A stretch of 64,000 nucleotides of DNA from Candidatus Algichlamydia australiensis (GCA_033977065.1 JAXCHI010000003.1:544001-608000); one strand, 5' to 3'; shown: positions 22,089 to 40,837, counted from the first letter of the stretch. Translations and numbers: made by a program. The notes: a model not told the origin generated them from the letters alone.

Positions 22089-22110
22089 TACCCCTTCAGA
22101 GTCTCCATCT

Positions 22111-22195: not shown

Positions 22196-22204
22196 ACTTG
22201 TTGA

Positions 22205-23902: not shown

Positions 23903-24023
23903 ACTATCCGAATAGTACAAGAACAAAGAAGAATCAACAACATATTTCAATCAGACACTCTCTAAAATCGTTCATGCAAATGAAAATATTGGATAAAAAT
24001 ATTTCTGGTGTTACTACTAGGTA

Positions 24024-24632: not shown

Positions 24633-24865
24633 TCGACGAATCAATCGCGATGATTTTTCGCAGAAGTTCTGAAGAAACCGGGCTTTTCCAAAAAGCGCAA
24701 GAAATGGGCTAAAATAGGTTCTTCGAAATTGATCGCTTATTTTGTCTCCAATTTTTTCATCTTTAAAAATACAAATGAAATATTTAGACAATCTTTTCGA
24801 TCAATGCTGATGGAGAAAACTTTTTCTGTTACTATATCCCCATATGAATGCGCATTCGCGTATAT

Positions 24866-25030
24866 TAGATAGCGTCGTCAAAAGCATAGAACCATCTTAT
24901 TTTTCATGTTTGGGCTCCATTTTTGTGCTCAAATGAAGCGGAATTTACAAATTCAGCTTCAATTTCCGCACAAAAATAAGCTGCAAACATGAAAAATAAT
25001 CTGATTATAGCCTTTTGACGACACTATCTA
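24866..25030. mobile_element. MITE-like foldback element, family A, copy 1 (165 bp)
   Basis: Terminal IR TAGATAGCGTCGTCAAAA / TTTTGACGACACTATCTA; nested IRs throughout; ~110 bp identical to 42649-42758. Confidence 0.8.
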
Positions 25031-25062
25031 GTTGGAATTGTTCTGTAGCTTTAAAGGGAAGC

Positions 25063-27054
25063 ATGCAAAGAAAAATAACAGTATTTTTTTTAACTTTTTT
25101 GATTATGGGTAATACACAAAGTATGAATATTTTTACTGATATTGCAAAAGAGGAGCTCTGCCGCACTCCTGATTTTATTTCCGCAAAAATCAGTCCTGAT
25201 GGGAAACTGATTGCGAAGATTGGTGCGGATGAATTTGGGATTCCTAATGTAACCGTATCTCCTATTGATGAAGCTGGGGCAGCTTCTCCATGTTTAAGCT
25301 CGTTTAAAACTCCTGAGATTATCCAATTTTTTTGGTCTGCTGATAGTAAAAAAGTTTTACTTCTTAAGGATGAAGAGGGAAAAGGGCAGCTCCATTTGCA
25401 CGGTTTTGATGTAGAGACAAAAGAGCACACACCTTACACAAAACAGTTTTCTCAGGTAAATACAAAAGTGATTAAACTAAGCTCCACAGAGAATGTAGCT
25501 GTTGTGGGATTGAATCATCGAAATCCGCACTTTCATGACTTATATAAACTCAACTTAGATTCTGGCCAGTTTTCCCTTTTGCTTGAAAATGATACTTTTG
25601 CAAATTTTCTTTTTAGCGATGATTTAGAGGCATTTCTTAAAATAAAAATCCACGAAGATGGATCTTGGACTGCTTATTTAGACGATGATACTGTTTTTCT
25701 TAATTTAACGGCTGAAGAGGCATTTGAGACGAAATTTCTTTCGTATAATAACCAGGAAAAGCGGGTGCACTTTTTAGACAACCGTTTTTCCAATACGAAT
25801 CAGTTAACGCAGAAGAGCGTTGAGGCTCCCTATGAAGAAAAAGTTTTAGGCGGGCAAAAGTTTAGCGATGTAGATGAAGTGATCTTTTTCCAAGGAAAGC
25901 CCAAAGCATATGCCTCCTATTACACACAGAAAAAATGGCATACGATCGATTCAAAAATTCAACAAGACATAGATTTTTTGATTGAGAAGGTGGGGAGCAA
26001 TTTTACACTTGTAAGCCTTAATCAGGAGGCTAGTATTTGGATCGTTTCGAACAGCATCCCTGATAAAGGAAACTACTTTTGGATTTTTCAAAGAGATTCT
26101 CATAAACTTACACAAATTTCACCTTCAACCTCCTGCGAGCCGAAAGATTATTCTAAAATGTACGAAATGGTGGTAACAGCAAGAGATGGAAAACAGCTTG
26201 TATGTTACTACACAATTCCAAGAGAATATGATCGAGGCGGCTATCTAGATACTCCGCTTCCTCTTGTAGTCATTCCTCATGGAGGGCCATTTAAAGTACG
26301 AGACAAGTTTGAATTCAACCCCTATCATCAATGGCTTGCGAGTTGTGGGTACGCAGCTCTCAGTGTCAATTTTCGTCTCTCTTCAGGCTTTGGCAAGGAA
26401 TTTGTCAATGCTGGAAATGGAGAATGGGGTGGAAAAGCGCATTTAGACGTAATCGACGCTGTCGAAGCGTGCATAGAAAAAGGTCTAACGGAAAGAGGCA
26501 GGCAGGCTGTTTTTGGCGGTAGCTACGGAGGGTATGAATCTTTGGCCGCGCTAACTTTCACACCTAAATATTTTAACTGCTGTGTAGCAATTTGTGGTCC
26601 TTCTAACTTAAAAACCGTCCTTAAATCCACACCAGAGTTTTGGGAGTTTACCTCTAAGCCACTATCTGACGAAACCATGTTTTTTACCCGGAGAGCCTTT
26701 GTAACTAGTATGGGAGGTGATCCTAATGATGAAGAGGGGGCTAAATATTTGGAAAAGTGTTCTCCGTTGCATCATCTTAATGAGATTCAATCCCCATTAC
26801 TGCTTGTTCATGGCAAAAATGATCATGTTGTGACAGAAAATGAATCTAGGCAAATTTATGATTCCATGAAAAAAAACAATAAGGATGTAACATACATTTT
26901 CTTCCCTAACGAGGGACATCGGTTTGCAAATTATGCAAATAATTTGATGTATTTGGATCAAGCTGAGCAGTTCCTGTCTCAACACTTAGGAGGGAAGTAT
27001 CGTCCAGCTGAAAGATCACTACTTGCGGACTCAACTGGAGAAGTTTTCAGCTAA
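25063..27054 (+). CDS. S9 family prolyl oligopeptidase / acylaminoacyl peptidase
   Basis: Beta-propeller N-terminus; HGGP, GGSYGG, D-HVV, EGH catalytic motifs. Start uncertain (25063-25123); the track start overlaps the MITE. Confidence 0.9.
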   Translation: MQRKITVFFLTFLIMGNTQSMNIFTDIAKEELCRTPDFISAKISPDGKLIAKIGADEFGIPNVTVSPIDEAGAASPCLSSFKTPEIIQFFWSADSKKVLLLKDEEGKGQLHLHGFDVETKEHTPYTKQFSQVNTKVIKLSSTENVAVVGLNHRNPHFHDLYKLNLDSGQFSLLLENDTFANFLFSDDLEAFLKIKIHEDGSWTAYLDDDTVFLNLTAEEAFETKFLSYNNQEKRVHFLDNRFSNTNQLTQKSVEAPYEEKVLGGQKFSDVDEVIFFQGKPKAYASYYTQKKWHTIDSKIQQDIDFLIEKVGSNFTLVSLNQEASIWIVSNSIPDKGNYFWIFQRDSHKLTQISPSTSCEPKDYSKMYEMVVTARDGKQLVCYYTIPREYDRGGYLDTPLPLVVIPHGGPFKVRDKFEFNPYHQWLASCGYAALSVNFRLSSGFGKEFVNAGNGEWGGKAHLDVIDAVEACIEKGLTERGRQAVFGGSYGGYESLAALTFTPKYFNCCVAICGPSNLKTVLKSTPEFWEFTSKPLSDETMFFTRRAFVTSMGGDPNDEEGAKYLEKCSPLHHLNEIQSPLLLVHGKNDHVVTENESRQIYDSMKKNNKDVTYIFFPNEGHRFANYANNLMYLDQAEQFLSQHLGGKYRPAERSLLADSTGEVFS

Positions 27055-27139
27055 TTTTTTGTTATATAATAGGTAATGAGCCCGATGTTACAGCTGTTAT
27101 GTGTGATATTGCTGATGACACATTTAATTATGTTCTAGC

Positions 27140-27196
27140 GGCTCAATTTTAAGGGGGTCATATCCACAAGCTGATATTACCCCCTTAAACTGAGTC
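27140..27196. terminator. Hairpin between convergent genes (terminator or foldback remnant)
   Basis: CTCAATTTTAAGGGGG.CATATC / GATAT.ACCCCCTTAAACTGAG. Confidence 0.45.
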
Positions 27197-27258
27197 CAAA
27201 AATCGACCAAAATAATCCAAAACTCAACGAAAGTTCATTTGAAGACACTCTCTATGTT

Positions 27259-27861
27259 CTATAAAAAACTGGTTAATTTCTCAAATTTTCCTGGAGCGGC
27301 GCGCTGAATATCATCTAAAAAAGCCTCTTTATCAGATGCATTCATATGTGGGAAAAGTCCGTTTAACATGGAAGTTAACTGGTTAGGAGTCATCGCTTTG
27401 TATGTAGGCTCTTCAACCATTCTTAGCTCACTATCAGTATAATGTTTTTGCAATTCGGGTAGAATCGAGGTCTCTTCCTCATGAAGATGCAGTAAATTCT
27501 CCCCAACAAATTTTCTGTAAGTTAAGTAGAGTTGATAACCTTTTTCAACTTTTTTTTCGGGAGAGCTTTCGTTATTAATTGCTTCTAACAAGTCATCAAT
27601 AAGGCGAAAAGTATCATCAAAGCTCTCATGATCTTCATGAGCGTGTAAATGTGCTTTTGAGCCTTTTTTTTCCAGGAGTGGATGAAGACGCTCCTCTTCG
27701 TATTTAGCATGTTCGTGGAGCATATGTGATACTTCCTGCCATTCAGTTTTTACGCTACTCGTTTCCTGATAGCTTCTAAAATCTGTTTTGGCAATAAGGC
27801 GCTCTAATTTGTTAAGGGCAGCACTCACATACTTATGTTCTCTATAAAATTTATATCTCAT
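27259..27861 (-). CDS. Hemerythrin (HHE) domain protein
   Basis: His/Glu ligand spacing EHK...HEHAKYEE...EDH...HLHEEE. Confidence 0.85.
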   Translation of the reverse strand: MRYKFYREHKYVSAALNKLERLIAKTDFRSYQETSSVKTEWQEVSHMLHEHAKYEEERLHPLLEKKGSKAHLHAHEDHESFDDTFRLIDDLLEAINNESSPEKKVEKGYQLYLTYRKFVGENLLHLHEEETSILPELQKHYTDSELRMVEEPTYKAMTPNQLTSMLNGLFPHMNASDKEAFLDDIQRAAPGKFEKLTSFL

Positions 27862-28427
27862 AATTTTTCCTTTTTTGATAAATATCTTTCTAAAATATAG
27901 CCTCTTATTTCATGCAGAGGGTAGGAGGAGGGTTCGAGCATATACTCAAGAGAAATACCCTGTAATAAAGAGCGCATATAAGTGGCTTCAAGTTCAGGGT
28001 TTGAGAAGCCGAGCTCTCGGAACAAACTTTGTTCCATTTCAAATATCTTTTTAAATGTATTTTGAAATTTTTTCATGGCTTCTTGGATAGCTTTGGCTCC
28101 ATCATTACTCAAAAAGAGCAAGTTATAAAGTTTTAGCTTTTCGGTCTCTTCTTGAAGCTCTCGAAGGACGAAGTCGACAAGAAAAATAAGCTTATCTTTT
28201 GCTGATGTTAGCTGACTCATTCCCTCGACAAGTGGCAAAAAGTCCTGCAGTCGTTTTTCTGAAAAGATAACTAGGAGATCTTTTTTGTTTTTAAAGTAGT
28301 GGTAAAAAAGAGCTTTGGAAGTTCCAGCTTCTTTAGTGATGTCTGAGATGCTGCTGCCATGATATCCTTTTTTTGAGAAAACTTTCATGGCGGCATTAAG
28401 AATTACAAGTCTATTTTTATCCTTCAT
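27858..28427 (-). CDS. TetR/AcrR family transcriptional regulator
   Basis: ILNAAMKVFSKKGYHGSSISDITKEAGTSKALFYHYFKNKKDL HTH. Confidence 0.95.
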   Translation of the reverse strand: MKDKNRLVILNAAMKVFSKKGYHGSSISDITKEAGTSKALFYHYFKNKKDLLVIFSEKRLQDFLPLVEGMSQLTSAKDKLIFLVDFVLRELQEETEKLKLYNLLFLSNDGAKAIQEAMKKFQNTFKKIFEMEQSLFRELGFSNPELEATYMRSLLQGISLEYMLEPSSYPLHEIRGYILERYLSKKEKL

Positions 28428-28435
28428 AAACTATG

Positions 28436-28464
28436 ACTATATCAAACGCTGACCGATCGGTCAA
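28436..28464 (-). promoter_or_regulatory. tetR promoter with overlapping palindromic operator
   Basis: Minus strand TTGACC-17 nt-TATAGT; perfect 14-bp palindrome TGACCGATCGGTCA (28450-28463) covers the -35; only 8 nt between the -10 and ATG. Confidence 0.8.
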
Positions 28465-28702
28465 CACAAAGTTCGCTAAAATTGAAATTCTCTTGTTTTG
28501 AAGAATTTTTTTCCAAATAAATATACGTGTGAAGATTAAGCAATTTTCAAAAGTTATTCCAAAGGAGTTTCACCAAAAGATTCTTGATGAAATTTTAGAA
28601 CTGTATGGTGAAAAAACCTCTTCAAAACAGGAAAGTAAAAGAGATCAAATTACCTATTTTGATACAATGTGTAAGGTTATTGTAAAAAAGTAGGAGGTCT
28701 TT

Positions 28703-29533
28703 GTGTCTTTCATCACCGTTCGAGGAAAAAAACTCTACTTTCAAGATCGAGGAGAAGGATTTCCTCTGCTTTTTGGTCATAGCTATTTGTGGTCATCCAA
28801 AATGTGGCAACTGCAACTGGATTTTTTATCAAAACACTTTCGATGTATAGCGACAGATCTTTGGGATCACGGTATCTCCGATCACTTAGGCGAAGAGTTT
28901 AGTTTAGAGTCTTGTGCCGAAGAGCACTGGCAGTTAATGCAGCACTTGGAGGTAGATGAGTTTGCAATGATTGGTCTTTCTGTCGGGGGAATGTGGGGAA
29001 CTCACTTGGCTCTGCAGCATCCAGAAGCAGTAAAAGCTCTGGTTTTGATGGATACTTTTGTGGGATCAGAGCCTAGTGTCTCTCAAAAGCGTTACTTCAA
29101 TCTACTGGATAAATTGGAGAGTGACGGTCGCTTTACGCCAGAATTTTTTGACCTGATTGCTCCTATGTTTTTCTCTCCCCATACTTTTCAAAATCAAAAA
29201 GAGTTGGTTGACAACTTTCGTAAAGAATTACTGGCAGTTGAGAGCGAGAGGATTCCTGGGATTGTAGAAATTGGGCGCAAAATTTTTTCACGAGCAGATC
29301 TGTTGCCCAAATTGAGCACAATTGAGCAGCCCTCTCTTGTGATTGTTGGTAGAGATGACCTTCCTCGTCCACCAAAAGAGTCAGAGCTTATGGCAGAGAG
29401 TTTGCCACACGCAACTTTGCAAATTGTAGAAAATGCGGGACACATCAGTAACTTGGAGCAAATAGAAGAAGTAAATTCTCTTCTTTTCAACTTTATTCAA
29501 ACGGTTTCTCAAAAGATGGAGGTAAACCAATGA
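28703..29533 (+). CDS. Alpha/beta fold hydrolase
   Basis: GHSY oxyanion loop, GLSVGG nucleophile, VGRDD, AGH; AGGAGG RBS. Confidence 0.92.
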   Translation: MSFITVRGKKLYFQDRGEGFPLLFGHSYLWSSKMWQLQLDFLSKHFRCIATDLWDHGISDHLGEEFSLESCAEEHWQLMQHLEVDEFAMIGLSVGGMWGTHLALQHPEAVKALVLMDTFVGSEPSVSQKRYFNLLDKLESDGRFTPEFFDLIAPMFFSPHTFQNQKELVDNFRKELLAVESERIPGIVEIGRKIFSRADLLPKLSTIEQPSLVIVGRDDLPRPPKESELMAESLPHATLQIVENAGHISNLEQIEEVNSLLFNFIQTVSQKMEVNQ

Positions 29534-30345
29534 GAAAGGTTTTTTTAACAGCAGTATTAGGGATGATCGCCCTTTTTTCAGGAGAGGGAAAGATCTCTTT
29601 TTATCCAAATCCTGAGATCGAAGGAGGACAAATTGAGGTTTATTCACAAGTCCCTGACATAACATCGAAAAAGTTGATTGTAACTTTAGGCGGAGCTGAC
29701 AATCCTGGGATTAAGTTTGATGATGAGAGAAGAACTTGGTTTGAACATTGGCTCAATAAAGGCTATTGTGTTGCACTAGTAGCTCTGCCGGGTTTTGGCG
29801 AGAGTTCTGGAAGGCGAGATCTACATGGCCCGCTATCAGTAAAAACTTTAAGTCATGCAATCGATGCCCTGATCGCCGAATATCAAATAGAGCAGACAGG
29901 GGTTATTGGTTTTGGCTATGGAGGGGCGACAGCCCTGCTTTTAACGGCCCAAAGAGATGATATCAACTGCTTAGTTTGTGCTAATGGCCTAGGCAATTTG
30001 CAGCGGATGAAGAACAATCCTTCGTGGATGTCTAGGTTTTTATCCCGGAATTATAATTTCAATTATGAAGATGAAGATGCGCTTCGCGCTCGCGTTCCTT
30101 ATTATCACGTGGATAAGATGCATACTCCACTTTATATTCTTCATCGATTTCCCCATCGTTGGGTTGACTTTGAAGGTGTAAACGAATTTGTGCAAGCAAT
30201 GAGAGAAAAAGGGAGAGAGTGCCAAGTTGCGATCCAACAAAAACGGCCTGAAGATCATCCAACCCGAGTTTCGATGGAAGAAGTTTTAGAAGTAACAGAG
30301 GAGTGGTTTGATCAGCATATGGAGAAAAATGGGCACGGGGTATGA
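29530..30345 (+). CDS. Exported alpha/beta hydrolase-fold protein lacking the nucleophile Ser
   Basis: Signal peptide; LPGFGESSG; nucleophile elbow reads GFGYGG; PLYILH. Confidence 0.7.
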   Translation: MRKVFLTAVLGMIALFSGEGKISFYPNPEIEGGQIEVYSQVPDITSKKLIVTLGGADNPGIKFDDERRTWFEHWLNKGYCVALVALPGFGESSGRRDLHGPLSVKTLSHAIDALIAEYQIEQTGVIGFGYGGATALLLTAQRDDINCLVCANGLGNLQRMKNNPSWMSRFLSRNYNFNYEDEDALRARVPYYHVDKMHTPLYILHRFPHRWVDFEGVNEFVQAMREKGRECQVAIQQKRPEDHPTRVSMEEVLEVTEEWFDQHMEKNGHGV

Positions 30346-31099
30346 CAGAAGCTTTGTAGAGCTTGTCGAATTTATTTATGGGGAAGGGAATCTCTCGCAA
30401 GGTGGGAGTGAGTCGACATTTTCCCAATTTGAAGGGATTGATCTTGAAGGGAAAAAGCTTTTAGATATTGGCTGCGGTCTTGGCGGTCGTGACATGGAGC
30501 TAGTCAAGGCTTTTGATGTTGACGTTACAGGAATTGATCCTGAAGCTTTTTTAATCCAGATGGCAAAAGAGCGCTTGGCGCAGAAAATGATGAAAGGTAG
30601 AGTCGATTTCCAAGTGACTAAGAATCCGCTAACGCTTTTGCAATTTGCAGATGGCTCGTTTGATGTTCTTGCAGCACGTGAGACTCTTTTGCATATTCCT
30701 GTAGAAAAAAAAGAAGCCTATTTCAAGGAGATGTTTCGAGTCTTAAAGCCAGGGGGAAAAATTACTGTCATTGATTGGATTCGCAATCGTCCCTACTCCG
30801 AAACAACCTTGAAAATGATGGAGATGGATGGTGTTGCTTTCAACATGATTCGCTCAGAAGAAGTAAAGGATCTTTTGCAAAATGCTGGTTTTAAAGGCGT
30901 GCAGATCATTGACAAAACTGAGGAAAACATTGCCGATACGGATTATTATGTGCGAAAAATTGAAAATACAAAAGATGAGTTTATTGAACGATTTGGCGCA
31001 GATGAATATGATTATTCTTTACTAAGTTGGAGTCATCAAAAGAGGGCTTTTGAAAATAGGGAAATACAGGTAGTGAAAATAATCGCGGATAAAGAATGA
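30329..31099 (+). CDS. Class I SAM-dependent methyltransferase (phosphoethanolamine/sarcosine N-methyltransferase-like)
   Basis: EFIYGEGNLSQGG, LLDIGCGLGG, FDV...RETLLHI, RVLKPGG; ATG 30329 after GGAG. Confidence 0.85.
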   Translation: MGTGYDRSFVELVEFIYGEGNLSQGGSESTFSQFEGIDLEGKKLLDIGCGLGGRDMELVKAFDVDVTGIDPEAFLIQMAKERLAQKMMKGRVDFQVTKNPLTLLQFADGSFDVLAARETLLHIPVEKKEAYFKEMFRVLKPGGKITVIDWIRNRPYSETTLKMMEMDGVAFNMIRSEEVKDLLQNAGFKGVQIIDKTEENIADTDYYVRKIENTKDEFIERFGADEYDYSLLSWSHQKRAFENREIQVVKIIADKE

Positions 31100-31668
31100 C
31101 ATCATATGAAAACAAAAAATTCCAAAAAGAATTCTTTACAGAAGACTGCATTGCAAATTGCCAGTTTGAGCGTTGCGAGTTTACTGAGACGCATTTTTGG
31201 AATACTAAATTTTCTGATTGTGTATTCAAAAATTGCAACTTGCATTTGGTGAAGTTAGAGGGCTCTCGTCTGCAAAATGTCCTTTTTGAGGATTGCAAGA
31301 TTATTGGGGCTGAGTTTCATAAGTGCGATAAAAGTTTTTTTTCACCGCAATTTAAGAGTTGTATCTTAATGGGATGCAATTTTTCCGACGTGAAGATAAA
31401 ACAAGCAAGCTTTGCAAAATGCAAGATTAAAGAGTGCTTTTTTAATGGGTCGAAGCTTTTAGAATGCGATTTTCGCGAGAGCGATCTGCAGGGGAGTGTT
31501 TTTCATCACGCAGATCTTTCAAAATCAGATTTTCGCGAGGCGGTGAATTACGCGATTAATCCTCTCGTGAATACGGTAAAAAAGGCGCGGTTTTCAATGC
31601 CAGAGGTGCAATCTATGTTGAAATTTTTTGACATTCAAATAGATTCTAATTTCTTTTATGAAACATAG
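31096..31668 (+). CDS. Pentapeptide repeat protein
   Basis: Repeating F..C.F / ADLSKSDFR pentapeptides; C-terminal YAINP...KARFS. Confidence 0.92.
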   Translation: MTSYENKKFQKEFFTEDCIANCQFERCEFTETHFWNTKFSDCVFKNCNLHLVKLEGSRLQNVLFEDCKIIGAEFHKCDKSFFSPQFKSCILMGCNFSDVKIKQASFAKCKIKECFFNGSKLLECDFRESDLQGSVFHHADLSKSDFREAVNYAINPLVNTVKKARFSMPEVQSMLKFFDIQIDSNFFYET

Positions 31669-32606
31669 CCAAACTTCCAGTAAATGAGATAGAAAAAGAG
31701 AGGAGCTGTGAAAATCAAGCTATCAATGCGGTCTAGCAAACCACCATGTCCTGGAAGAAGTCTCCCAAAATCTTTTATTTGTACATCACGTTTTAAGGCA
31801 GACATAGTTACATCTCCCAAAAAACCTCCAACTCCTACCAAAATGCCTACAAAAGTAGCAAAACCAAAGTGGGTTGGTGTTAAAAATGGGCTTAGTAATG
31901 CAGCAAAAATGATCGTTGTTAATATCCCTCCAAAGCAACCTTCATAAGTTTTTTTTGGGCTAATTAATGGAACGATTTTACGCTTTCCAAAAAGCTTTCC
32001 CCAAATATATTGGCTGGCATCATTGATCTCTGTCAAGATTAGTAGATAAAGCACAAGGCCTAAAGGCCCCGCTTCAAATTGCATTTGTGTGGAGTAGGTA
32101 GAGAGAAATGCGATGTAGCTTAAGCTATATCCCATCATCATAATCCCCCAAAACATGGTACCTATAGAGTGTAGGAACTCTTTTGGAGTTCCTGCAATAA
32201 TCATCCTGACAGGAATACAAAGGTAGACGTAAACGGGTATGAAAATTAAAAACCCAATAAAAGAATTTGTGAGGATTAAAAGATACTGGATTGGAAGAGA
32301 AAGGTAGAGCCAAAGTCGTACGCGCTTGTGCTCTGAAAGTTTGGGGACTGCCTGGAAATACTCTTTTAGTGCTAAATAGCTTATTCCCATCCAAAATAGT
32401 GTAATGCACCAATTACGGGTTAGAAAAAGAAGAGCGAATACCCCAAAAATAATCCACCACGCAATCAATCGCTTCTTAAGATCGGAGAACTTTTTTGTGG
32501 GGAAAAGCCAAGCAAAAATTTGAAAAGTAAGCAGGAGTCCTACAAGAGAGAGAAATGTCCAAAATACTGGAGGTGTGAGAAGGGGGAAAAAATTTGTATT
32601 AAACAT
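31656..32606 (-). CDS. Phosphatidate cytidylyltransferase (YnbB/CdsA-like)
   Basis: ND.SQY.WGKLFG, SPKKTYEG, GD...SALKRD..IKDFG.LLPGHGGLLDRIDSL. Confidence 0.93.
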   Translation of the reverse strand: MFNTNFFPLLTPPVFWTFLSLVGLLLTFQIFAWLFPTKKFSDLKKRLIAWWIIFGVFALLFLTRNWCITLFWMGISYLALKEYFQAVPKLSEHKRVRLWLYLSLPIQYLLILTNSFIGFLIFIPVYVYLCIPVRMIIAGTPKEFLHSIGTMFWGIMMMGYSLSYIAFLSTYSTQMQFEAGPLGLVLYLLILTEINDASQYIWGKLFGKRKIVPLISPKKTYEGCFGGILTTIIFAALLSPFLTPTHFGFATFVGILVGVGGFLGDVTMSALKRDVQIKDFGRLLPGHGGLLDRIDSLIFTAPLFFYLIYWKFGYVS

Positions 32607-32628
32607 AAAGATACATTTAGTGCTAAAT

Positions 32629-32657
32629 TTGACGATCTATACTGGATAGTGTAGTAT
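32629..32657 (+). promoter_or_regulatory. Promoter of the rightward lipid operon
   Basis: TTGACG-17 nt-TAGTAT in the 76-bp divergent spacer; ATTTAG-TG-CTAAAT inverted repeat abuts the -35. Confidence 0.55.
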
Positions 32658-32682
32658 TGAAGCGGAAATTTGGCAAATTTTT

Positions 32683-33288
32683 ATGAATGTTGGTCTTTAC
32701 AATTTAAAATATCCGTTTAGGAGAGTAATAAGTTTTTTATTGCCTATTTTTAAAAATATTCATCCCGATGTAGTGAGTTACTCCCTAATTCCGATTGGGA
32801 TTTTGACCGCAATTCTCTTTTTTTATGCTCCAAGTACTCCTTTTTTCTATCTGATTGGGGCACTCTTTATTTTACTCCGAATGATTGTAGGAACTCTTGA
32901 TGGTTTGATTGCCGTGACTTTTAACAAAAGTTCACCAAAAGGGGAGATGATCAATCGCATTGCTCCTGAGGTGTGTGACATGCTTCTGATCACTGCGATT
33001 GTCTACTCTTCTCCAAATTATTTGATACTCGGATCTGCTGTTCTTGCTGCCTGCTGGGCTGTGACATTTTTTGGGCTGATTGGGATTGTTGCAGAAAAAA
33101 AGATTCAAAGCGTTGGGCCTGCTGGGCAAACAGATCGCATTGTCGCGCTGGCTGTTTTCTCTCTTTTTCACTATTTTCAGAAGTTTTTTTCTTTTCACAT
33201 CGATTTTATCTATCTCTTTCTTATCTGGGTTCTAGTTGGAAGTGCTCTAACGCTTTATTTTAGAATTTCCCGGAATTTTTCAAGATGA
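32683..33288 (+). CDS. CDP-alcohol phosphatidyltransferase (YnbA-like)
   Basis: LYNLKYPFRR, HPDVVS, LDGLIA...SPKGEMIN...EVCD (variant of DGxxAR...G...DxxxD), GPAGQTDR. Confidence 0.85.
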   Translation: MNVGLYNLKYPFRRVISFLLPIFKNIHPDVVSYSLIPIGILTAILFFYAPSTPFFYLIGALFILLRMIVGTLDGLIAVTFNKSSPKGEMINRIAPEVCDMLLITAIVYSSPNYLILGSAVLAACWAVTFFGLIGIVAEKKIQSVGPAGQTDRIVALAVFSLFHYFQKFFSFHIDFIYLFLIWVLVGSALTLYFRISRNFSR

Positions 33289-35231
33289 TCGCTAAATCTG
33301 TTCGAAAGAATTACCCTGTTTTAAAGAGCGGAGTTTTTCTCAATCATGCTGCAACAGCACCTGTTTCGTACGGAACGATTCATCGCATGCAGTCTCTCTG
33401 TCGTGAGATGGAGGATCCTCTTGGTAAGCATTTTTATCAGTGGCTCGCAATTGAAGAGGAGACACGACGCATGATCGCTGAACTTCTTGGCACCTCGCCT
33501 TCGGAAATTTCCATTACGCCAAACACCTCTTCAGCTCTCAGTATAGTTGCAAATTGTATCGATTTTCAAATTGGTGATCGGGTACTTGTTCCGCGTAATG
33601 AGTTCCCTTCGAACCGCTATGTTTGGCAAAATTTAAGAGCAAAAGGGGTAGAGTGTACTTTTTTTGATCTTGATCCAACTAAGTCACTGGTTGAACTTCT
33701 TGAAGCTCTCGACCTTACCAATGTACGATTGATTTCTATTAGCCAGGTGAGTTACTTGACAGGACAAAGACATAATTTGCGCGACTTTGGAACCTTTTGC
33801 AAGGAGCGTAAAATTTTTAGTTGTGTAGACGCAATTCAGGCTGTTGGGACTTTTCCAATTGATCTGAAGCAAACTCCTGTCGATTTCTTTGCAGGAGGAG
33901 CGCAAAAATGGCTTCTTGGACCTATTGGGTGTGGCTATCTCTATATCAAGAAAGAGTTAATTGACCAGGTTCGTGTTCCTTTTGTTGGGTGGACAAGTGT
34001 ACGTTATCCTGAAAGTTTTGATGAGATGAAGCTCGAATTTCCCCCTGAGGCGACCAGATTTGAGCCTGGCCTGCCCAATATTGTGGCAATTGCGGGGTTG
34101 AATAACTCTTTGCATGAGTTGAAAAGAGTCGGATGGGAAAAAATTTTTAGCCAGCTACTCCTCTCTTCTCAATATCTCTACGAGGCGATGCAGCAGATCC
34201 AAGGCTTTAAGCCATTAATCCCTGATTTTGATCATATTGGAAGAGTTGTGAGCTTTTCTCTCCCTACAGGAGTGAATCCAAAAAAACTTTTATTAGACCT
34301 AGGAAAGAAGGGGATTACAGTCACAGCAAGGGCCGGGTATATTCGTCTCTCTCCTCACTTTTACAATACAAAAGAGGAGTTGGATAAATTTCTCAATGCG
34401 ATTGATGGTTGCGCGATGCGAAAAAGTATTCGCTATCCTGCTGCAGAAAGACCCTCTCAAAAAAATAATCGCTGGATTTTGCTTAACGGAGCTACAGGAA
34501 CTCTTGGCCGTGAAATAGCACTCTATCTAGCGCAAAAAGGGTTCAATATTAAGGGAATTGGCAGATCTAGGAAAGTTTTAGAAGAGTTAAGAAAAAAGAT
34601 TGGTGCGGGATTTGAATCGTTATGTTTGGACTTTTTGAACGATGGCGCGCTTGAAGATTTTTTGCAGGAAGAGAAAAGAAGATATGCAGCGCTGATTAAT
34701 GTATCCGGTCTATCAGAAGCGGTGCCTTATGAAAACATGGATTTCAAAAAGTTGCGAGAGATGTTTGAAGTCAATTTTTTTGCTCCAGCGAAATTAATGC
34801 AGTTTTACTCTTCGCGTTTTGACTCTGAAAATCCTATTGGCATACTCAATGTTATTTCAGGAACAGGGCGAGTGGGGTATCCCTTATTTGGCGGATTCGG
34901 AGCTAGCTCCGGAGCTCTCTGGACTTTAAGTGAAAGTTTAGAGAGAGAATGGAAAAGAAAAAACATTCCAGTTACTACCTTTATTTCTCCTCCCATGCAT
35001 TCTCCGATGCAGAAGACTCTCGGAAGAGTAATGCTGCGCTACTTTCCGATGAAATCAAAAGGATTTGATTATGCGCATGCGGAAGAGATTGCAAGAGATG
35101 CAGTAGAGGCACTTTTTCTCGGGAAAGGGGTCGTAGATAAGAGGAAGAGTCGGTTTACCGATCTTATGAACAGCTTATTTCCAAACTACATTTCTAATAA
35201 AATCAAAAAAAAATTCTGTAGGGAAAGGTAA
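33285..35231 (+). CDS. Fusion of PLP-dependent aminotransferase class V domain and SDR-like domain
   Basis: FLNHAATAP, EFPSN, VDAIQAVG, QKWLLGP (PLP Lys), RFEPG, IRLSPHFYN; then NGATGTLG Rossmann fold and EVNFF, with FGASS in place of YxxxK. Confidence 0.85.
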   Translation: MIAKSVRKNYPVLKSGVFLNHAATAPVSYGTIHRMQSLCREMEDPLGKHFYQWLAIEEETRRMIAELLGTSPSEISITPNTSSALSIVANCIDFQIGDRVLVPRNEFPSNRYVWQNLRAKGVECTFFDLDPTKSLVELLEALDLTNVRLISISQVSYLTGQRHNLRDFGTFCKERKIFSCVDAIQAVGTFPIDLKQTPVDFFAGGAQKWLLGPIGCGYLYIKKELIDQVRVPFVGWTSVRYPESFDEMKLEFPPEATRFEPGLPNIVAIAGLNNSLHELKRVGWEKIFSQLLLSSQYLYEAMQQIQGFKPLIPDFDHIGRVVSFSLPTGVNPKKLLLDLGKKGITVTARAGYIRLSPHFYNTKEELDKFLNAIDGCAMRKSIRYPAAERPSQKNNRWILLNGATGTLGREIALYLAQKGFNIKGIGRSRKVLEELRKKIGAGFESLCLDFLNDGALEDFLQEEKRRYAALINVSGLSEAVPYENMDFKKLREMFEVNFFAPAKLMQFYSSRFDSENPIGILNVISGTGRVGYPLFGGFGASSGALWTLSESLEREWKRKNIPVTTFISPPMHSPMQKTLGRVMLRYFPMKSKGFDYAHAEEIARDAVEALFLGKGVVDKRKSRFTDLMNSLFPNYISNKIKKKFCRER

Positions 35232-37687
35232 TGGAATCAATACGGTACTTTATTGAAACTTTATGGCAGGAGTATGGTGACAATACCGCAATCATCTCCT
35301 ATCACCGTTTTAAAAGAAGAGAGTACACCTATACAGAAATTTACTCTTTAATAAAAAAATGTGCTGCTTATCTCCAATCAAAAGGTTTGAAAAAAGGGGA
35401 TAAAATCCTTATTTACGCGGAAAACTCACCAGAGTGGGTGGTGATTCTATTGAGTTGTGCCTTGAGCGGGATTGTTCTTGTTCCCATTGATCGCAAATCT
35501 CCAATAAATTTTGCAAAAGCGATTTTTGATCGAACAGAAGCAAAATGGTTGGTTTCGGATCTCCAACAGAATGCGATTACGGCCGATTGCATTCCTATTG
35601 AGACACTTTTTGCTACTATTGCTTCTTTTTCAGGTGACTCTTTAAAAGAAGTGACAATAGTTGCAGATGACCTCTTAGAAATTGTTTTTACATCAGGAAC
35701 TACTTCAGAACCAAAGGGGGTGGTTATTACACACCGGAACTTTGTGGCAAGTATACAGGGGATACGTATGCAGAACCTTTCGTGTAATAATTATTGCCGC
35801 TTTCTTTCCATGCTTCCTTTGAGTCACGTATTGGAGCAAAACGCAGGCTGCCTTTCCATTCTTCGTTTTGGAGGACAAATTGTTTACACAAGGGGCTTAA
35901 GTTTTACTCGCATTGTAGAGGTAATGAGAGAAGAAAAAATTTCTCATATCATCGCAGTTCCTGCGATTTTGGAGCAGTTTGCTAGTAAAATCCAAAAAGA
36001 AATAGAAAAGAAAAGGCTCAAAAAAGTGTTTTCTATCCTTTTTAAAATTCTTAAAATTGCTCCTCAAACAGTGAGAAGAGCTCTTCTATTTGGTATTAGG
36101 CGAAAATTTGGGAAAAATTTGCAGACATTTATTTGTGGAGGAGCACCTTTAGATCAAGAGGTGGAGCTATTTTGGAAGGGAATGGGGGTCGATGTTCTAC
36201 AAGGATATGGTTTAACAGAAAGCAGCGCAATGTGCTGTGTAAACACTTACGCAAAAAGCAAAAGAGGAGCTGTAGGAATTCCCCTTCCTAATCTAAGCTT
36301 GAAGATAGATAAAAATGGGGAGATTTTGCTTAAAGGCGACTCGATTATTAATGAGTACTACAGAAATGAAAAATTAAATAAGGAGGCCTTTACGGAAGGC
36401 TGGTTCCATACTGGTGATGTTGGGCGGATTGATAAAAAAGGATTTCTTTATATCACAGGTCGGTTAAAAGATATGATCTTAACTTCAAACGGGTTGAATG
36501 TGTTTCCAACAGACATCGAAAAAGTGATGACCCGAATTCCGGGGATTGTAGAAGGAGCAGTCTTTGAAGATCCTAAAGCAAAAGGAAAACTTGTTGCAGC
36601 AGTGATTGTTGATGATCAGTATAGAGAACAGAGCGCTTTGGAACAGGTCAATACGCAGCTAGCACCGCACCAAAAACTTGCAAAAATGGTTGAATGGAGT
36701 CGCTCTTCACTACCAAAGACACCCTCCATGAAGCTGAACAGGAAAGAGTTAGCAAAAATTTATCTGGAAGAGCTACTGCAAATTTCAAAAAAGACCTCTC
36801 AAGAAATCGATCCTCTTGTACAAATTCTCTCACAAATTTCTCAGGTCCCAGAAGAGAAGATTAAGCACAATTCTTTAATTGTTAAAGATTTAGGATTAGA
36901 TTCACTCTCTCTAGTTGAACTTGTTCTTGCTTTAGAAGCGCGATTTCGGATTGAAATAGATGAATCAATTTTAACTCAGAATTTAACCCTTTTCGAGCTG
37001 AAAAAAATTCTTACTTCCGATAAGCAGAAAAGACCGATGAAATCAGCTTGTTACATCTATAGCAAGTTTTTTCGCTGGATAAATAGAATTTTCCGGAGCC
37101 TCACAATAAAAATATTGTCAATGCGTGTGAAAGTAGAGGTTATTGGGGAGCTTCCAGCTTTAAAACGTCCCACCATATTTGTTGCCAATCACACAAGCCA
37201 CCTTGATACTTACTCGATCATTTCTGCCGTTTCAGAAGAGGTGCAAAATCACCTGGTTGCAGCTGCTGCGCATGACTATTTTTTTGAAAAACATAAAATA
37301 AGAGGTTTTTTTTTAACTCTTTTCCTACTACCTTTAATCCCATTTTATCGATCAGGCAAATTCTCCCAAAATTTGAAGATGATGAGTAAAGCAATGGGAA
37401 AAAAGAATCACCTTCTTCTTTTTCCTGAAGGTACAAGAAGTCGAACAGGAGAGATGGGTCGATTTAAAAAAGGTATTGGGATGGTCGTAAAAGAGATGGA
37501 TGCTCATGTCATTCCACTCTATATTGAGGGTGCGCATCTTTTGTTACCACCTCAATCAGCTATTCCCCAAAAAGGAAAAATCAAAGTACACATCGGAGAA
37601 AAACTCTCTTTTGAACCGAGTCTTTCAGCAGAAGAGATCACATCTTGTCTCAAGAAGAGTCTTCTTAAATTCAAATTGCAGCCATGA
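35231..37687 (+). CDS. Tridomain acyl-adenylate ligase + acyl carrier protein + PlsC-type acyltransferase
   Basis: FTSGTTSEPKG, QGYGLTE, FHTGD, GRLKD, KTPSMK; DLGLDSL phosphopantetheine Ser; NHTSHLD and FPEGTRS. Confidence 0.92.
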   Translation: MESIRYFIETLWQEYGDNTAIISYHRFKRREYTYTEIYSLIKKCAAYLQSKGLKKGDKILIYAENSPEWVVILLSCALSGIVLVPIDRKSPINFAKAIFDRTEAKWLVSDLQQNAITADCIPIETLFATIASFSGDSLKEVTIVADDLLEIVFTSGTTSEPKGVVITHRNFVASIQGIRMQNLSCNNYCRFLSMLPLSHVLEQNAGCLSILRFGGQIVYTRGLSFTRIVEVMREEKISHIIAVPAILEQFASKIQKEIEKKRLKKVFSILFKILKIAPQTVRRALLFGIRRKFGKNLQTFICGGAPLDQEVELFWKGMGVDVLQGYGLTESSAMCCVNTYAKSKRGAVGIPLPNLSLKIDKNGEILLKGDSIINEYYRNEKLNKEAFTEGWFHTGDVGRIDKKGFLYITGRLKDMILTSNGLNVFPTDIEKVMTRIPGIVEGAVFEDPKAKGKLVAAVIVDDQYREQSALEQVNTQLAPHQKLAKMVEWSRSSLPKTPSMKLNRKELAKIYLEELLQISKKTSQEIDPLVQILSQISQVPEEKIKHNSLIVKDLGLDSLSLVELVLALEARFRIEIDESILTQNLTLFELKKILTSDKQKRPMKSACYIYSKFFRWINRIFRSLTIKILSMRVKVEVIGELPALKRPTIFVANHTSHLDTYSIISAVSEEVQNHLVAAAAHDYFFEKHKIRGFFLTLFLLPLIPFYRSGKFSQNLKMMSKAMGKKNHLLLFPEGTRSRTGEMGRFKKGIGMVVKEMDAHVIPLYIEGAHLLLPPQSAIPQKGKIKVHIGEKLSFEPSLSAEEITSCLKKSLLKFKLQP

Positions 37688-37799
37688 GCAAGCTGTAAAT
37701 TATGCCATTAATCCTCTCGTGGACATGATGAAGAAAGCACATTTTTCGATTTCAGAAACACACTCCATGTTGAAATTTTTTGAAATTCAAATTTCTTGA
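37686..37799 (+). pseudogene. Duplicated 3' fragment of the pentapeptide repeat gene
   Basis: Translates AVNYAINPLVDMMKKAHFSISETHSMLKFFEIQI, 25/34 aa identical to the C-terminus of 31096..31668. Confidence 0.85.
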
Positions 37800-37845
37800 A
37801 AAATTCTAATCCTGGTATGATGGGATCTCAAACGGGAGAAAAATA

Positions 37846-38505
37846 ATGATGAAACACAATCGAATTTTTTTAATCGCATGCTGGCTTTGCTTTGTGCTAA
37901 TTGGCCAATTTTTAAAATTTAGTATACCTGTAGGTGAGCAGTCCGCTTCCCTCTCATGTCTTGCAATTGCACTACCACTTTTAGCCTGTTTTCTACCGGC
38001 AAGAATCTCTCTGCCGATTATTAGTGGCCTCTGGCTTACTTTGCACGCATTTCATCCCATTCCTCTTACAATGGGAATTCCAACACTATTAGCTGCTCTT
38101 TCATGGCGCATTTCTAAAAATAGTGCAGGTGTTAATCGATTATTTCACTTAGCCCTTCCTGCTGCTGCAATCATAGCTTTTGCTTTTTCTTCCTCCGGTG
38201 CAGATGCATGGCCCTATACGCTTTACTGGCTGATTCCGATGGCATGCACATTTTTCAAGCCAAGTCTCTTTTCTCGCGCTCTGCAAAGTACGTTTATGGC
38301 ACATGCAGCGGGTAGCTTGATCTGGGCTTACTTCGTTCCACTTTCTGGCGCGCAGTGGCTAGCACTTATCCCTGTTGTCGCTTTAGAGCGTCTTTTGGCA
38401 GCAGGAGTTGCGATGGCTCTTGTTAAAACGCTATCCGCATTGGAAGTTTCTTTGCCAAACATGCTGCTAAGCTTAAAAAAAAGAACATTAAGTGTTGAAA
38501 GCTAA
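37846..38505 (+). CDS. Polytopic membrane protein, unknown function
   Basis: ~6-7 hydrophobic helices; GGGAG RBS. Confidence 0.75.
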   Translation: MMKHNRIFLIACWLCFVLIGQFLKFSIPVGEQSASLSCLAIALPLLACFLPARISLPIISGLWLTLHAFHPIPLTMGIPTLLAALSWRISKNSAGVNRLFHLALPAAAIIAFAFSSSGADAWPYTLYWLIPMACTFFKPSLFSRALQSTFMAHAAGSLIWAYFVPLSGAQWLALIPVVALERLLAAGVAMALVKTLSALEVSLPNMLLSLKKRTLSVES

Positions 38506-39433
38506 AACCTTTTTTAAGTGGGTTTTATTGCCATTTGCTCTGTTTGCTCGAGATGTCCCAGAGATTTCAAGTTGGACAGAGCCAACTGTTCGCGATTTTG
38601 AAATTTTGCAGGAGCATTTGCAGGAGCAGGCAGAGAGAGATCACGCGCGTTTTTCGGGAACGGTACATCATAAGCGGTTGAAGAGAGTCAATGATTTTTC
38701 TCTTCTGGTTGATGGAAGAATCCCCGAAAAACAGCTTGAAATTTTCAATACAGACGAAGACGATAGGTCGTGCTTAATTGTCACTTACGCCTCATACAAT
38801 GAGAAGTTTATAGAATTTGTTGAGCGGCAAAAGAGAGGTCTTGAGTATGTAAAATATAAAGGCCATTTTCTCTATTGGATTGGTGGATGGCCCTTTATTA
38901 AAGGGGGAGGTCTTGAGGTATTTGATACTCCCTACGCCTTTAAAATTTGCGCTTTGCTAGAGGCACGCGCAATGGGGTATGAGAAAGTGATCTGGCTCGA
39001 TTCAAGGATTTGCCCACTACGAAACCTTAAGCCTGTATTTTGTTTTTTAGATAAAATGCCCATTGTCATGCGCACTAGCATGAATCAAAAACTAGAAAAT
39101 TTTGCCCATCCTTGGGTCTTAGAAGCGTTTGATACAAGCGCAGAAGAATTGAAAAATTGTGTTCACTATGCCACCGGTGTTTTAGGGGTAAATCTCCGTG
39201 ATAAAAGAGTGAATGAGATCCTGGATAAGTACTTTGAGCTTGCAAAAAACCGTGAAGGGTTCATGAACCGCTTCCCTTGCCAAGTTCCCTGGAGCTTGCT
39301 TCTTAAGCGATCTAGTCTTGAGATCAAGTTGCTAAAACCTCTTGTCTCTTTTTCAGGGCAGAGTAATGGTCGTGCTTATTTTAAGTGCGACTATCATGAT
39401 CGTTTTGATTATCCAAATTCTTATAAAAAATAA
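38492..39433 (+). CDS. Exported/anchored hypothetical protein, possibly GT-A glycosyltransferase-like
   Basis: N-terminal signal; YAFK...GYEKVIWLDS motif resembles GT-A-like families. Confidence 0.5.
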   Translation: MLKAKTFFKWVLLPFALFARDVPEISSWTEPTVRDFEILQEHLQEQAERDHARFSGTVHHKRLKRVNDFSLLVDGRIPEKQLEIFNTDEDDRSCLIVTYASYNEKFIEFVERQKRGLEYVKYKGHFLYWIGGWPFIKGGGLEVFDTPYAFKICALLEARAMGYEKVIWLDSRICPLRNLKPVFCFLDKMPIVMRTSMNQKLENFAHPWVLEAFDTSAEELKNCVHYATGVLGVNLRDKRVNEILDKYFELAKNREGFMNRFPCQVPWSLLLKRSSLEIKLLKPLVSFSGQSNGRAYFKCDYHDRFDYPNSYKK

Positions 39434-39490
39434 TTTCACAATAAAGCTCTCTATGAGATAACAGAAATTTGAATGTTTAGAGGTTTTGTT

Positions 39491-40837
39491 ATGAAATTTG
39501 TAGTTTTGGCTCTAGGAATTGCACTTGCATCTGCCAGCGCAGAAGAGATTACGCTACAAGATATTTTAAGTATCAAAGAGCAAATTCGCCAAGATCGTGA
39601 GCAGATTGCAGAGTTAAAAGAGCACCTGCGAGGAAGCGAGCAGGATCGCGATGTTGATATTCTTGAGCTTAAAGCTGTTCTTACACATCAAGAAGAAGAG
39701 ATTGCCCAGCTCAATCAGGAGATTGCAAAAGCAAAAAAAGAGAAGCAGTCACCGGCAAATAAAACTAAGCCGATGGGGTGCGCACCAAAACCTGCTTGCC
39801 CACCAGATCCTTGCTGTGAGCCTGTCTGCTGCCCAAAAGTCTATAAACCTCTACCTCCACCATGTCAGCGCTGTCCGATGGCGATGCGCTATCATCCCGC
39901 CATTGATGAGGAGAGCCAATTTGCGGCACGCGGAGAATTTCTTATTTGGAAGACGGCTGCTAACCCGCTTGATTATGCCCTGCCAAAGCAAGTAAATGAA
40001 ACAGGTGTTGATACAGGTGCGATTGGACCTTATGAAGTTTTAGATTATGATTGGGACCCAGCATTTCGCTTGGCATTGCAATATCGCTTCTGTCCCGATT
40101 TCTGGCAGGCTGAAGTGCAGTACACCTATCTTAGCAACTCGGGATCTGATTCTGTAAATGGAGGAAGCAATCCCAACCCTGCTGCAGGCGAAGCCTTTTT
40201 AACAGGAACTTTTATTCAAGAGACGGGAGAGGCTCTTTCTCGCGCAAGCGCAAGTATCGATTTTGATTACCACGTCTTAGACTTTTATCTTGCTAGACGC
40301 TTTCTTCTAGCTGAGAGTATCATCTTTAAATTCCTTTTTGGAGCATCGGGTGCTTGGATTAACCAAGATCTTGATGTTCGCTATACCGGGTTTGATATCG
40401 CGAGCTCACGCACGACAAATAATTGGAAGTACAATGCTGGTGGAATCAAGGCAGGAATTACAAACGATTGGTTTTTAGGAAAAGGATTTGGCATCTATTC
40501 GCAGCTTGTTTTGGGAGGTTTTATTGGTAACTGGAAAGGAGATGCTAGAAACACCTCAATTGATACAACTGGAACAAGCCAGACCCTAGAAAATTGGACC
40601 TATGAAGATACACGCTTTGCGTTGACAACACAGTTCCAACTCGGTCTCTCGTGGCATTGGCTTTTTGAAAACATCTCTTTGCGTCTTTTTGCTGGGTATG
40701 AGATGAATCCTTGGATCAATATTAACGATATTCGTGCTTCATCTCTGCAAGATGATACGAGACAGCGCTTTTCTCGAATCCATCGCGGCCTCATCTGCCC
40801 ACAAGGTGTTACCCTTAACGCCCAAGTCGGCTTCTAA
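39491..40837 (+). CDS. MOMP-like (Legionella Lpg1974-type) pore-forming outer membrane protein with coiled-coil and Cys/Pro-rich N-terminal extension
   Basis: Signal peptide; GEFLIWK...LDYA...WDPAFR...LFAGYE...W; C-terminal GVTLNAQVGF. Confidence 0.8.
   Translation: MKFVVLALGIALASASAEEITLQDILSIKEQIRQDREQIAELKEHLRGSEQDRDVDILELKAVLTHQEEEIAQLNQEIAKAKKEKQSPANKTKPMGCAPKPACPPDPCCEPVCCPKVYKPLPPPCQRCPMAMRYHPAIDEESQFAARGEFLIWKTAANPLDYALPKQVNETGVDTGAIGPYEVLDYDWDPAFRLALQYRFCPDFWQAEVQYTYLSNSGSDSVNGGSNPNPAAGEAFLTGTFIQETGEALSRASASIDFDYHVLDFYLARRFLLAESIIFKFLFGASGAWINQDLDVRYTGFDIASSRTTNNWKYNAGGIKAGITNDWFLGKGFGIYSQLVLGGFIGNWKGDARNTSIDTTGTSQTLENWTYEDTRFALTTQFQLGLSWHWLFENISLRLFAGYEMNPWININDIRASSLQDDTRQRFSRIHRGLICPQGVTLNAQVGF

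Follow-up and report, generated by a model that had tools for sequence, protein, structure and literature searches.

We analysed a 64,000-nucleotide stretch of the Candidatus Algichlamydia australiensis genome (GCA_033977065.1 JAXCHI010000003.1:544001-608000; hereafter the window, with positions counted from its first letter) and focused on a four-gene lipid cassette that recurs in other genomes, is extra to the housekeeping genes and is bracketed by a direct repeat. In the explanation that we favour, tentatively and with a probability of roughly 0.45, the cassette is a ynb-type accessory head-group pathway, which is fed by an ElbD-like fatty-acid activating acyltransferase and was inserted as one block. 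Three features are new here: the bracketing repeat, a short-chain dehydrogenase/reductase (SDR) domain without the catalytic Tyr and Lys, of which the Lys was lost once in this clade along with Methyltransf_20, and a pyridoxal 5'-phosphate (PLP) domain that has no SufS cysteine loop and is similar to the cystine C-S lyase C-DES. The open reading frames (ORFs) and domains of the cassette, which include a built-in acyl carrier protein (ACP) and a cytidine diphosphate (CDP)-alcohol transferase, are arranged as follows:

31656..32606, minus strand: ynbB-type cytidylyltransferase gene, 316 aa
32607..32682, no strand: divergent intergenic spacer of 76 bp, from the ORF coordinates
32683..33288, plus strand: YnbA-like CDP-alcohol transferase gene ('YnbA2'), 201 aa
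33285..35231, plus strand: PLP class-V/SDR fusion gene, whole, from the ORF call
33285..34439, plus strand: PLP class-V domain of SufS/C-DES fold, without the cysteine loop (Aminotran_5, PDB, Foldseek)
34470..35231, plus strand: SDR-like domain without the catalytic Tyr and Lys (F538, S542; adh_short)
35231..37687, plus strand: adenylation-ACP-PlsC gene, 818 aa

All four reading frames are open, and the three plus-strand genes overlap at their starts and stops, first by 4 nt and then by 1 nt. The gene coordinates, the divergent spacer and the overlaps reported in a first-pass annotation of this DNA agree with the ORF calls to the base, and the domain types that it proposed for the four genes are borne out by Pfam, with a marginal transferase call that is backed by the fold. 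The genome comprises 1.8 Mb in 7 contigs, and the nearest named relatives of the cassette proteins are environmental chlamydiae (Neptunochlamydia, Anoxychlamydiales and Simkania). Among public runs, the stretch was found in two DNA contig runs only, both from one study and labelled as dinoflagellate metagenome. The spacer holds one promoter-like hexamer pair per strand, the regional total of such pairs being at chance level, and promoter and terminator scans of the region both performed no better than chance.

The gene set recurs, which argues that the cassette is not a chance neighbourhood. We surveyed 299 other genomes of the phylum for PLP homologues (E 1e-60 or better) and collected metagenome loci by a scan with the fusion alignment, followed by tblastn with the window proteins. 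The co-localisation search called for by the first-pass annotation retrieved the four genes in identical order and orientation from G167, G187 and G081, and likewise from the metagenome contig L031, the closest metagenome relative of the cassette; in G218 the layout starts alike and then the contig ends. Orthologues in the four other genomes sharing the layout are 44-65% identical. Immediately ahead of the fusion, the YnbA-like gene is found in all 22 metagenome loci for which upstream DNA is available (three further fusion-clade loci have none) and in all seven genome loci, and it adjoins none of the seven chlamydial PLP-only genes. YnbB is present in 15 of the 25 metagenome fusion loci and in 7/7 genome loci, while PlsC adjoins in 14 related loci besides the window, nine times as a stand-alone protein and five times fused. 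Cultured Bdellovibrio strains also carry the YnbB/YnbA-like/PLP-SDR core. Across the 14 genomes with a PLP homologue, four have the layout of the window, seven have a PLP-only gene without a ynb neighbour, and three have a second layout in the order hydrolase, YnbB, PlsC, Methyltransf_20, YnbA-like and PLP-SDR. Because E. coli YnbC consists of a hydrolase and a Methyltransf_20 domain, we regard these second-layout clusters as extended ynb operons. The earlier statement that no cluster with this gene set was known has to be qualified in this respect: the cassette has relatives and represents one version of the ynb operon family, in which its sister clusters carry a YnbC-type hydrolase and Methyltransf_20. 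Full-text literature searches gave no paper that deals with this combination of genes or with what ynbABCD produces; the supplements of a 2026 preprint might list similar clusters.

The product of the minus-strand gene matches CTP_transf_1 (207 bits, Pfam) and is 46% identical to E. coli YnbB over 277 aa (E 4e-75). Its 42% identity with the CdsA of the same genome is restricted to the C-terminal 132 aa, and it scores 103 bits on the NCBIfam CdsA equivalog, for which the cut-off is 385. Cytidylyltransferases carry a C-terminal signature, and the corresponding window stretch, SALKRDVQIKDFGRLLPGHGGLLDRIDS, matches E. coli YnbB residue for residue. We assign the protein, on sequence grounds, as a YnbB orthologue and a CdsA paralogue, which narrows the YnbB/CdsA-like label given to it before. 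In the portions of the E. coli study available to us, overproduction of YnbB leads to more of the glycolipid MPIase, YnbB is no substitute for CdsA, and CdsA and YnbB form GlcNAc-PP-DAG (PMC6362211). The increase in MPIase and the failure to replace CdsA in those portions point to a dedicated, non-bulk lipid role for YnbB. E. coli YnbB, whose reported part in MPIase synthesis is auxiliary, is the only experimental anchor for reading the cassette.

Housekeeping counterparts of the cassette enzymes are found in the same genome. A second CdsA is encoded in a locus with the order uppS, cdsA, cmk/plsC, and three further CDP-alcohol transferases and three further PlsC domains lie elsewhere. In addition, an Aas-like protein of 904 aa with PlsC, PP-binding and AMP-binding domains is located outside the window (G000:C2:141086-143800, locus L147) and is probably the housekeeping Aas-type fatty-acid scavenger. 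Since the housekeeping cdsA locus, the other CDP-alcohol transferases and the Aas-like enzyme are all retained, the cassette is accessory; it does not hold the only cdsA, pgsA or plsC of the organism, in agreement with the stand-alone pathway first proposed for it. The genome also encodes one AcpS.

The YnbA-like protein exceeds the CDP-OH_P_transf cut-off marginally (23.5 bits, cut-off 22; Pfam) and is 22% identical to E. coli YnbA over 109 aa (E 1e-7). Its AlphaFold2 (AF2) model, with a predicted local distance difference test score (pLDDT) of 84.7, matches phosphatidylinositol-phosphate (PIP) synthases, AF2299 and DIPPS, and also PgsA1, at a query-normalised TM-score (TMq) of 0.70-0.76 (Foldseek), and DIPPS is its only PDB match by sequence profile (E 0.0017). 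The predicted fold thus supports the weak assignment as a transferase. CDP-alcohol transferases share the motif D-x2-D-G-x2-A-R-x8-G-x3-D-x3-D, which is also visible in the DIPPS alignment; the YnbA-like protein keeps D73, G74, A77 and G87 of this motif and does not possess the full catalytic set. An alignment of 16 relatives places the protein in a separate subfamily, which has an invariant motif of its own, GTLDGLIA...G-x3-NRxxPExCD. In the metagenome operon L036:7644-11941, a canonical YnbA, a YnbB-like gene, a YnbA-like gene and a PLP-SDR fusion follow one another in a row; since both transferases occur in this operon, they are not interchangeable. No YnbA-like protein fused within a longer protein was found, an outcome that carries little weight.

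The fusion protein contains Aminotran_5 at residues 17-369 (165 bits) and adh_short at residues 397-579 (78.5 bits; Pfam). By sequence, its PLP domain matches type II cysteine desulfurases and the C-S lyase C-DES, with PDB hits to 5b7s (E 1e-33) and C-DES (E 2e-23), and C-DES is also the top structural match of its AF2 model (pLDDT 92.3; target-normalised TM-score (TMt) 0.87, root-mean-square deviation (rmsd) 2.1 Å; Foldseek). The PLP Lys (K208), F107 and the carboxylate-binding Arg (R354) are conserved in 87 of 87 full-length fusions, and all 33 PLP-only relatives share these PLP-domain motifs. When the domain is aligned to 5b7s and 8d8s, the loop bearing the SufS catalytic Cys is missing, as it is in C-DES, and the two cofactor-adjacent His residues of desulfurases read Phe-Pro. 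The PLP domain therefore has neither the loop Cys nor the stacking His that mark SufS/CsdA desulfurases, and we take it for a distinct class-V subfamily that is not predicted to act as a desulfurase. Its NCBIfam EgtE match is weak (48 bits, cut-off 400). Classical SDR enzymes use a catalytic Ser-Tyr-Lys set with a YxxxK motif; the SDR half here retains the Ser (S525), has F538 for the Tyr and S542 for the Lys, and falls outside the classical type. Canonical YxxxK is found in 25 of the 87 fusion homologues, all of them at most 39% identical to the window protein, and the Lys is replaced in the other 62, mostly by His, Gln or Asn. The Tyr is missing in just four of the 87, the window protein among them.

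In the PLP-domain tree (120 rows, quick IQ-TREE), the 62 Lys-less fusions form one clade with an SH-aLRT (Shimodaira–Hasegawa-like approximate likelihood ratio test) support of 97. Seven PLP-only proteins are nested in this clade, six of them among chlamydiae, and the window fusion is sister to P0122 (support 98) in a chlamydial subclade. The state of the SDR domain is mirrored in gene content: of the 15 loci that keep YxxxK, 10 have Methyltransf_20 immediately before the YnbA-like gene and the other five have no upstream DNA, and Methyltransf_20 is found in none of nine Lys-less loci, eight of which, including the window, have upstream DNA. The likely order of events starts from an ancestor with an active SDR and Methyltransf_20, continues with the Lys being lost once, along with the methyltransferase, and ends with the loss of the SDR domain in some chlamydiae; the window clade would then be a simplified branch of this older pathway. 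The same data bear on whether the cassette is a decaying or silent relic, in which the frames are intact and nothing is made any longer. Such a relic would account for F538 and S542 in place of the catalytic residues, for a Tyr loss seen in so few homologues and for the patchy distribution among relatives. We nevertheless consider it very unlikely, given four open frames with all other catalytic motifs intact and a layout kept at 44-65% identity in four other genomes; furthermore, the Lys loss is old and common to 62 fusions, suggesting that the state of the SDR domain is stable and not a recent decay.

A PLP-only member of the Lys-less clade offers a hint on the chemistry. In G102 (L134:304-2553), a fusion of FGE-sulfatase and Methyltransf_33, which is EgtB-EgtD-like, overlaps a PLP-only gene (L134:2501-3691) whose product is nested in the Lys-less clade and is 56% identical to the PLP domain of the window. 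After EgtB and EgtD, ergothioneine synthesis needs a PLP C-S lyase, and the locus suggests an ergothioneine-type pathway in a chlamydial genome. Among five chlamydial genomes, the EgtD family was found in G102 only, and it was not found in the window genome, so that the ergothioneine link consists of a single locus. The neighbours of soil PLP-only relatives (tRNA_bind, Glu/Leu/Phe/Val dehydrogenase and DUF2127) give no clue to the chemistry. One such soil gene (L087:8061-11736) is flanked by a hemerythrin-domain gene and by a pentapeptide-repeat gene that is 34% identical to that of the window; the window also has a hemerythrin gene (27259-27861), a parallel that may be a coincidence.

The 818-aa protein comprises AMP-binding (232 bits), AMP-binding_C, PP-binding (529-589) and Acyltransferase (635-765, 72 bits) domains (Pfam), and its motifs are all intact (TSGTTSEPKG, GYGLTE, HTGD, LGLDSLS, NHTSHLD and FPEGTR). 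Relatives of about 1400 aa add NAD_binding_4 and Sterile domains, and the window protein is best described as a predicted ElbD-like enzyme without the reductase domain. A contig scan with this protein returned only adenylation-domain relatives, in Clostridia and Rhodobacteraceae, and among fusion-bearing loci the adenylation-ACP part occurs only in the window, in L031 and in L127-L129. In G030 (L030:2790-8285), a 482-aa protein without a Pfam family, a canonical YnbA, YnbB and the adenylation-ACP-PlsC protein point in one direction, and no PLP-SDR gene lies within the 16 kb examined. An ElbD-type ether lipid pathway could be read from the homology between the 818-aa protein and the ~1400-aa proteins with the ElbD domain set. 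It would also fit the reductase-less ElbD-like homologues described in other phyla, for which the accessible part of a review gives no lipid data (PMC9131029), and the CDP-alcohol transferases that lie beside elbD homologues in sponge symbionts in the available part of a 2026 preprint. This pathway is nonetheless extremely improbable, since the 818-aa protein has no fatty-acyl reductase domain, the sole reductase-like domain nearby, the SDR half, is inactive, no AGPS-type gene is found among the ORFs scanned (25-42 kb), and most core loci have a plain PlsC or none.

A PLP enzyme and a reductase that neighbour an ACP protein for fatty-acid activation would also suit a sphingoid or aminolipid route, in which the PLP domain condenses acyl-ACP with an amino acid, the SDR reduces the resulting ketone, and acylation and a phospho head group follow. 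A feature search of the ESM Atlas gave Aminotran_1_2 and adh_short fusions as the nearest clusters (score 0.94; 105 members labelled Nucleocytoviricota and 93 Pseudomonadota), which join another PLP class to an SDR and serve as a lead only. Known enzymes that condense acyl groups with amino acids are class I/II alpha-oxoamine synthases, unlike the PLP domain here with its SufS/C-DES fold. With the adenylation-ACP part missing in most core loci and the putative ketoreductase dead in the window, we regard this route as highly improbable.

Evidence for the insertion of the cassette as one block comes from its borders, where the following features are found:

31096..31668, plus strand: pentapeptide-repeat gene, 190 aa, the insertion target (Pfam Pentapeptide_4/Pentapeptide)
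31540..31640, plus strand: left copy of the direct repeat, 101 nt, within the 3' end of the pentapeptide gene
37692..37792, plus strand: right copy of the direct repeat, 101 nt, a non-coding remnant of the pentapeptide 3' end

The two copies of the 101-nt repeat are 76% identical at a spacing of 6152 (pairwise blastn E 1e-18), and the right copy starts 4 nt past the stop codon of the acyltransferase gene. In one frame, the right copy reads ...AVNYAINPLVDMMKKAHFSISETHSMLKFFEIQIS up to a stop codon and ends in ...IQIS, like the gene of the same-genus genome G001, whose pentapeptide orthologue is 68% identical and ends in ...FFDIQIS. The pentapeptide gene of the window ends in ...FFDIQIDSNFFYET before its stop codon (...IQIDSNFFYET), its last 28 nt reaching into the inserted block. 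The 6051 bases between the repeats contain the four cassette genes and nothing else, and no integrase is present within this block. We interpret the repeat as the scar of a block insertion of 6.05 kb at the 3' end of the pentapeptide-repeat gene, and the divergence of the two copies suggests that the insertion is old. Both contig runs bridge both cassette junctions, with no joint that skips the cassette. A recent transfer read from base composition was considered and rejected, the cassette being no outlier in GC content or tetranucleotide usage; composition agrees with an old insertion or a similar donor. The region 22000-38000 of the window is lower in G+C (0.37-0.40) than its flanks (0.42-0.47) and extends far to the left of the cassette. 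The first-pass view that the pathway was probably acquired is therefore upheld by the bracketing repeat, but base composition gives no sign that the transfer was recent.

From the genes, motifs, linkage, redundancy and repeat observed, we infer the following chemical steps and product. The adenylation domain would activate a free fatty acid and load its own ACP, and the PlsC domain would use the acyl group to acylate a lyso-glycerophosphate acceptor, giving a private pool of phosphatidate. YnbB would turn phosphatidate of this pool into a CDP-activated lipid, from which the YnbA-like transferase would move the phosphatidyl group onto a hydroxyl acceptor. As the YnbA-like fold is closest to PIP synthases, a polyol, sugar or amino-acid-type phosphate is the most plausible acceptor. 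The PLP domain would act as a beta-lyase or a transaminase to make or remodel an amino-acid-like portion of the head group: the C-DES-like loop and the Egt-like locus of G102 favour a lyase, and the Phe at the stacking-His position leaves room for a transaminase. The fatty acids may be scavenged from the host. Nothing shows that the PLP enzyme supplies the lipid backbone, as had been suggested at first, and the adenylation-ACP part is missing from most core-bearing lineages.

Several observations weigh against this pathway. No lipid product of the cassette has been seen, and none of the public runs listed with the stretch is an RNA run. The YnbA-like protein has lost three of the four canonical Asp residues (D1 is G70, D3 is N91 and D4 is P95) and has V78 in place of the motif Arg, and with three motif Asp residues replaced its chemistry may differ. 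Where SufS and C-DES have a PLP-stacking His, all 87 fusions and all 33 PLP-only relatives have Phe. The loss of the SDR residues would leave the SDR half of the window genome catalytically dead and without a catalytic role, so that no redox step can be credited to it; seven relatives lack the SDR half entirely, and the fusion as such may thus not matter. The full adenylation-ACP-PlsC protein was found in one of 40 relatives' genomes (G030), and the module is rare in the phylum, with a PLP homologue in 14 of the 299 other genomes. Finally, the GC content of the cassette (0.393; genome mean 0.421) lies at the 13th percentile with an unremarkable tetranucleotide distance, and the two contig runs yielded no empty site, nor did the relative G001, in which the pentapeptide gene has a different neighbourhood.

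The work on E. coli YnbB opens another route, in which YnbB would make the sugar-pyrophosphoryl-diacylglycerol of an MPIase-like glycolipid anchor. The PLP-SDR protein would oxidise and then transaminate, and would in this way provide or alter an amino sugar or a polyol phosphate. Besides the MPIase increase and the GlcNAc-PP-DAG formation in the available portions of that study (PMC6362211), sugar-related genes beside ynbB are consistent with this idea. In L031:593-4491, a packed series on the same strand after ynbB encodes a NAD-dependent epimerase, a PfkB-family sugar kinase and a 210-aa protein without a family; in L043, a major facilitator superfamily (MFS) transporter and a GFO/IDH/MocA oxidoreductase follow ynbB. 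The enzymes closest in fold to the YnbA-like protein also use an inositol phosphate acceptor. However, the PLP domain is of the SufS/C-DES type and not of the DegT sugar-aminotransferase family, the SDR needed for the oxidation is inactive here and Lys-less across the near clade, each set of sugar genes occurs in one locus, and the cassette of the window contains no glycosyltransferase. We consider the glycolipid anchor unlikely on balance.

A sulfur-based variant of the head-group pathway is more speculative still. In this variant, the PLP domain would be a cysteine-conjugate C-S beta-lyase that acts on the head group built by the YnbA-like transferase and installs a thiol or sulfur function on a membrane phospholipid, which we think quite unlikely. 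It is no more probable that the active SDR and Methyltransf_20 of the older sister clusters process this group further, for example by S-methylation. The proposal is drawn from the SufS/C-DES fold with its short loop, the EgtB-EgtD-like overlap in G102 and the joint loss of the SDR Lys and Methyltransf_20, and PLP C-S lyases are paired with methyltransferases in other pathways. If true, bacteria with intracellular or predatory lifestyles, namely Chlamydiota, Legionellales-like Gammaproteobacteria and Bdellovibrio, would possess a class of glycerophospholipids that contain sulfur.

At least one tested feature stands against each of the rival explanations. With the accessory head-group pathway as the preferred explanation, the cassette places the widespread ynbAB genes in a new context, as it defines a second, sharply delimited branch in which a PLP enzyme invariably accompanies a divergent CDP-alcohol transferase. 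This branch exists in two evolutionary states, with an active SDR and Methyltransf_20 or with neither, and some chlamydiae have added a self-contained fatty-acid activating acyltransferase to it. For lipid biochemists, the cassette offers a compact four-gene unit, and natural 'mutants', namely the PLP-only derivatives and the dead SDR, are of use in assigning the pathway steps. In the context of chlamydial biology, the cassette suggests a membrane lipid that is specific to the lineage and may be made from scavenged fatty acids, and the clean insertion scar indicates that lipid modules of this kind move as units.

Downstream of the cassette, the window of this chlamydial genome encodes a 454-aa protein (39473-40837) that scores 90 bits against the Legionella major outer membrane protein family. 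The two ORFs ahead of it, 37846-38505 and 38492-39433, have no family in Pfam.

In our comparison with known systems, a close counterpart of the cassette is the E. coli ynbABCD operon, which likewise combines YnbB (46% identity) with an adjoining CDP-alcohol-transferase-like membrane protein (201 aa in the window) and is likewise accessory to a housekeeping cdsA. The sister clusters of the cassette also encode an alpha/beta hydrolase and Methyltransf_20, which are the domains that make up E. coli YnbC. The E. coli system, by contrast, contains neither the PLP-SDR protein nor the adenylation-ACP-PlsC protein, its YnbA carries the motif NExxDxxxD where the window transferase, at 22% identity, has NRxxPExCD, and the cassette has no YnbC-type or YnbD-type (PAP2/DSP phosphatase) gene among the ORFs at 25-42 kb. 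Upstream hydrolases (28703 and 29530) and a methyltransferase (30308) were considered as a split YnbC and rejected (E 0.18, 0.31 and 0.011, respectively).

The 818-aa protein shares acyl-activating, ACP and AGPAT-like acyltransferase domains with Myxococcus xanthus ElbD, but it does not have the fatty-acyl reductase of ElbD and so stands outside the ElbD type. With Aas, it shares the logic of activating free fatty acids and re-acylating lysophospholipids. Aas consists of an N-terminal PlsC and a C-terminal acyl-ACP synthetase and uses free ACP, whereas the 818-aa protein has the reverse order (AMP-binding, PP-binding, PlsC) with a built-in ACP and is no Aas; the 904-aa PlsC-PP-binding-AMP-binding protein of the genome fits the Aas role better. 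The YnbA-like protein, for which PIP synthases, AF2299 and DIPPS are the best predicted-fold matches, differs from them in the replacement of three of the four motif Asp residues and of the motif Arg. The PLP domain shares its fold and the PLP-binding Lys and Asp with C-DES and the type II cysteine desulfurases SufS/CsdA, and its short loop without a catalytic Cys is that of C-DES, while the change of the stacking His to Phe, the fusion to an SDR-like domain and the tie to a membrane transferase set it apart from C-DES and SufS.

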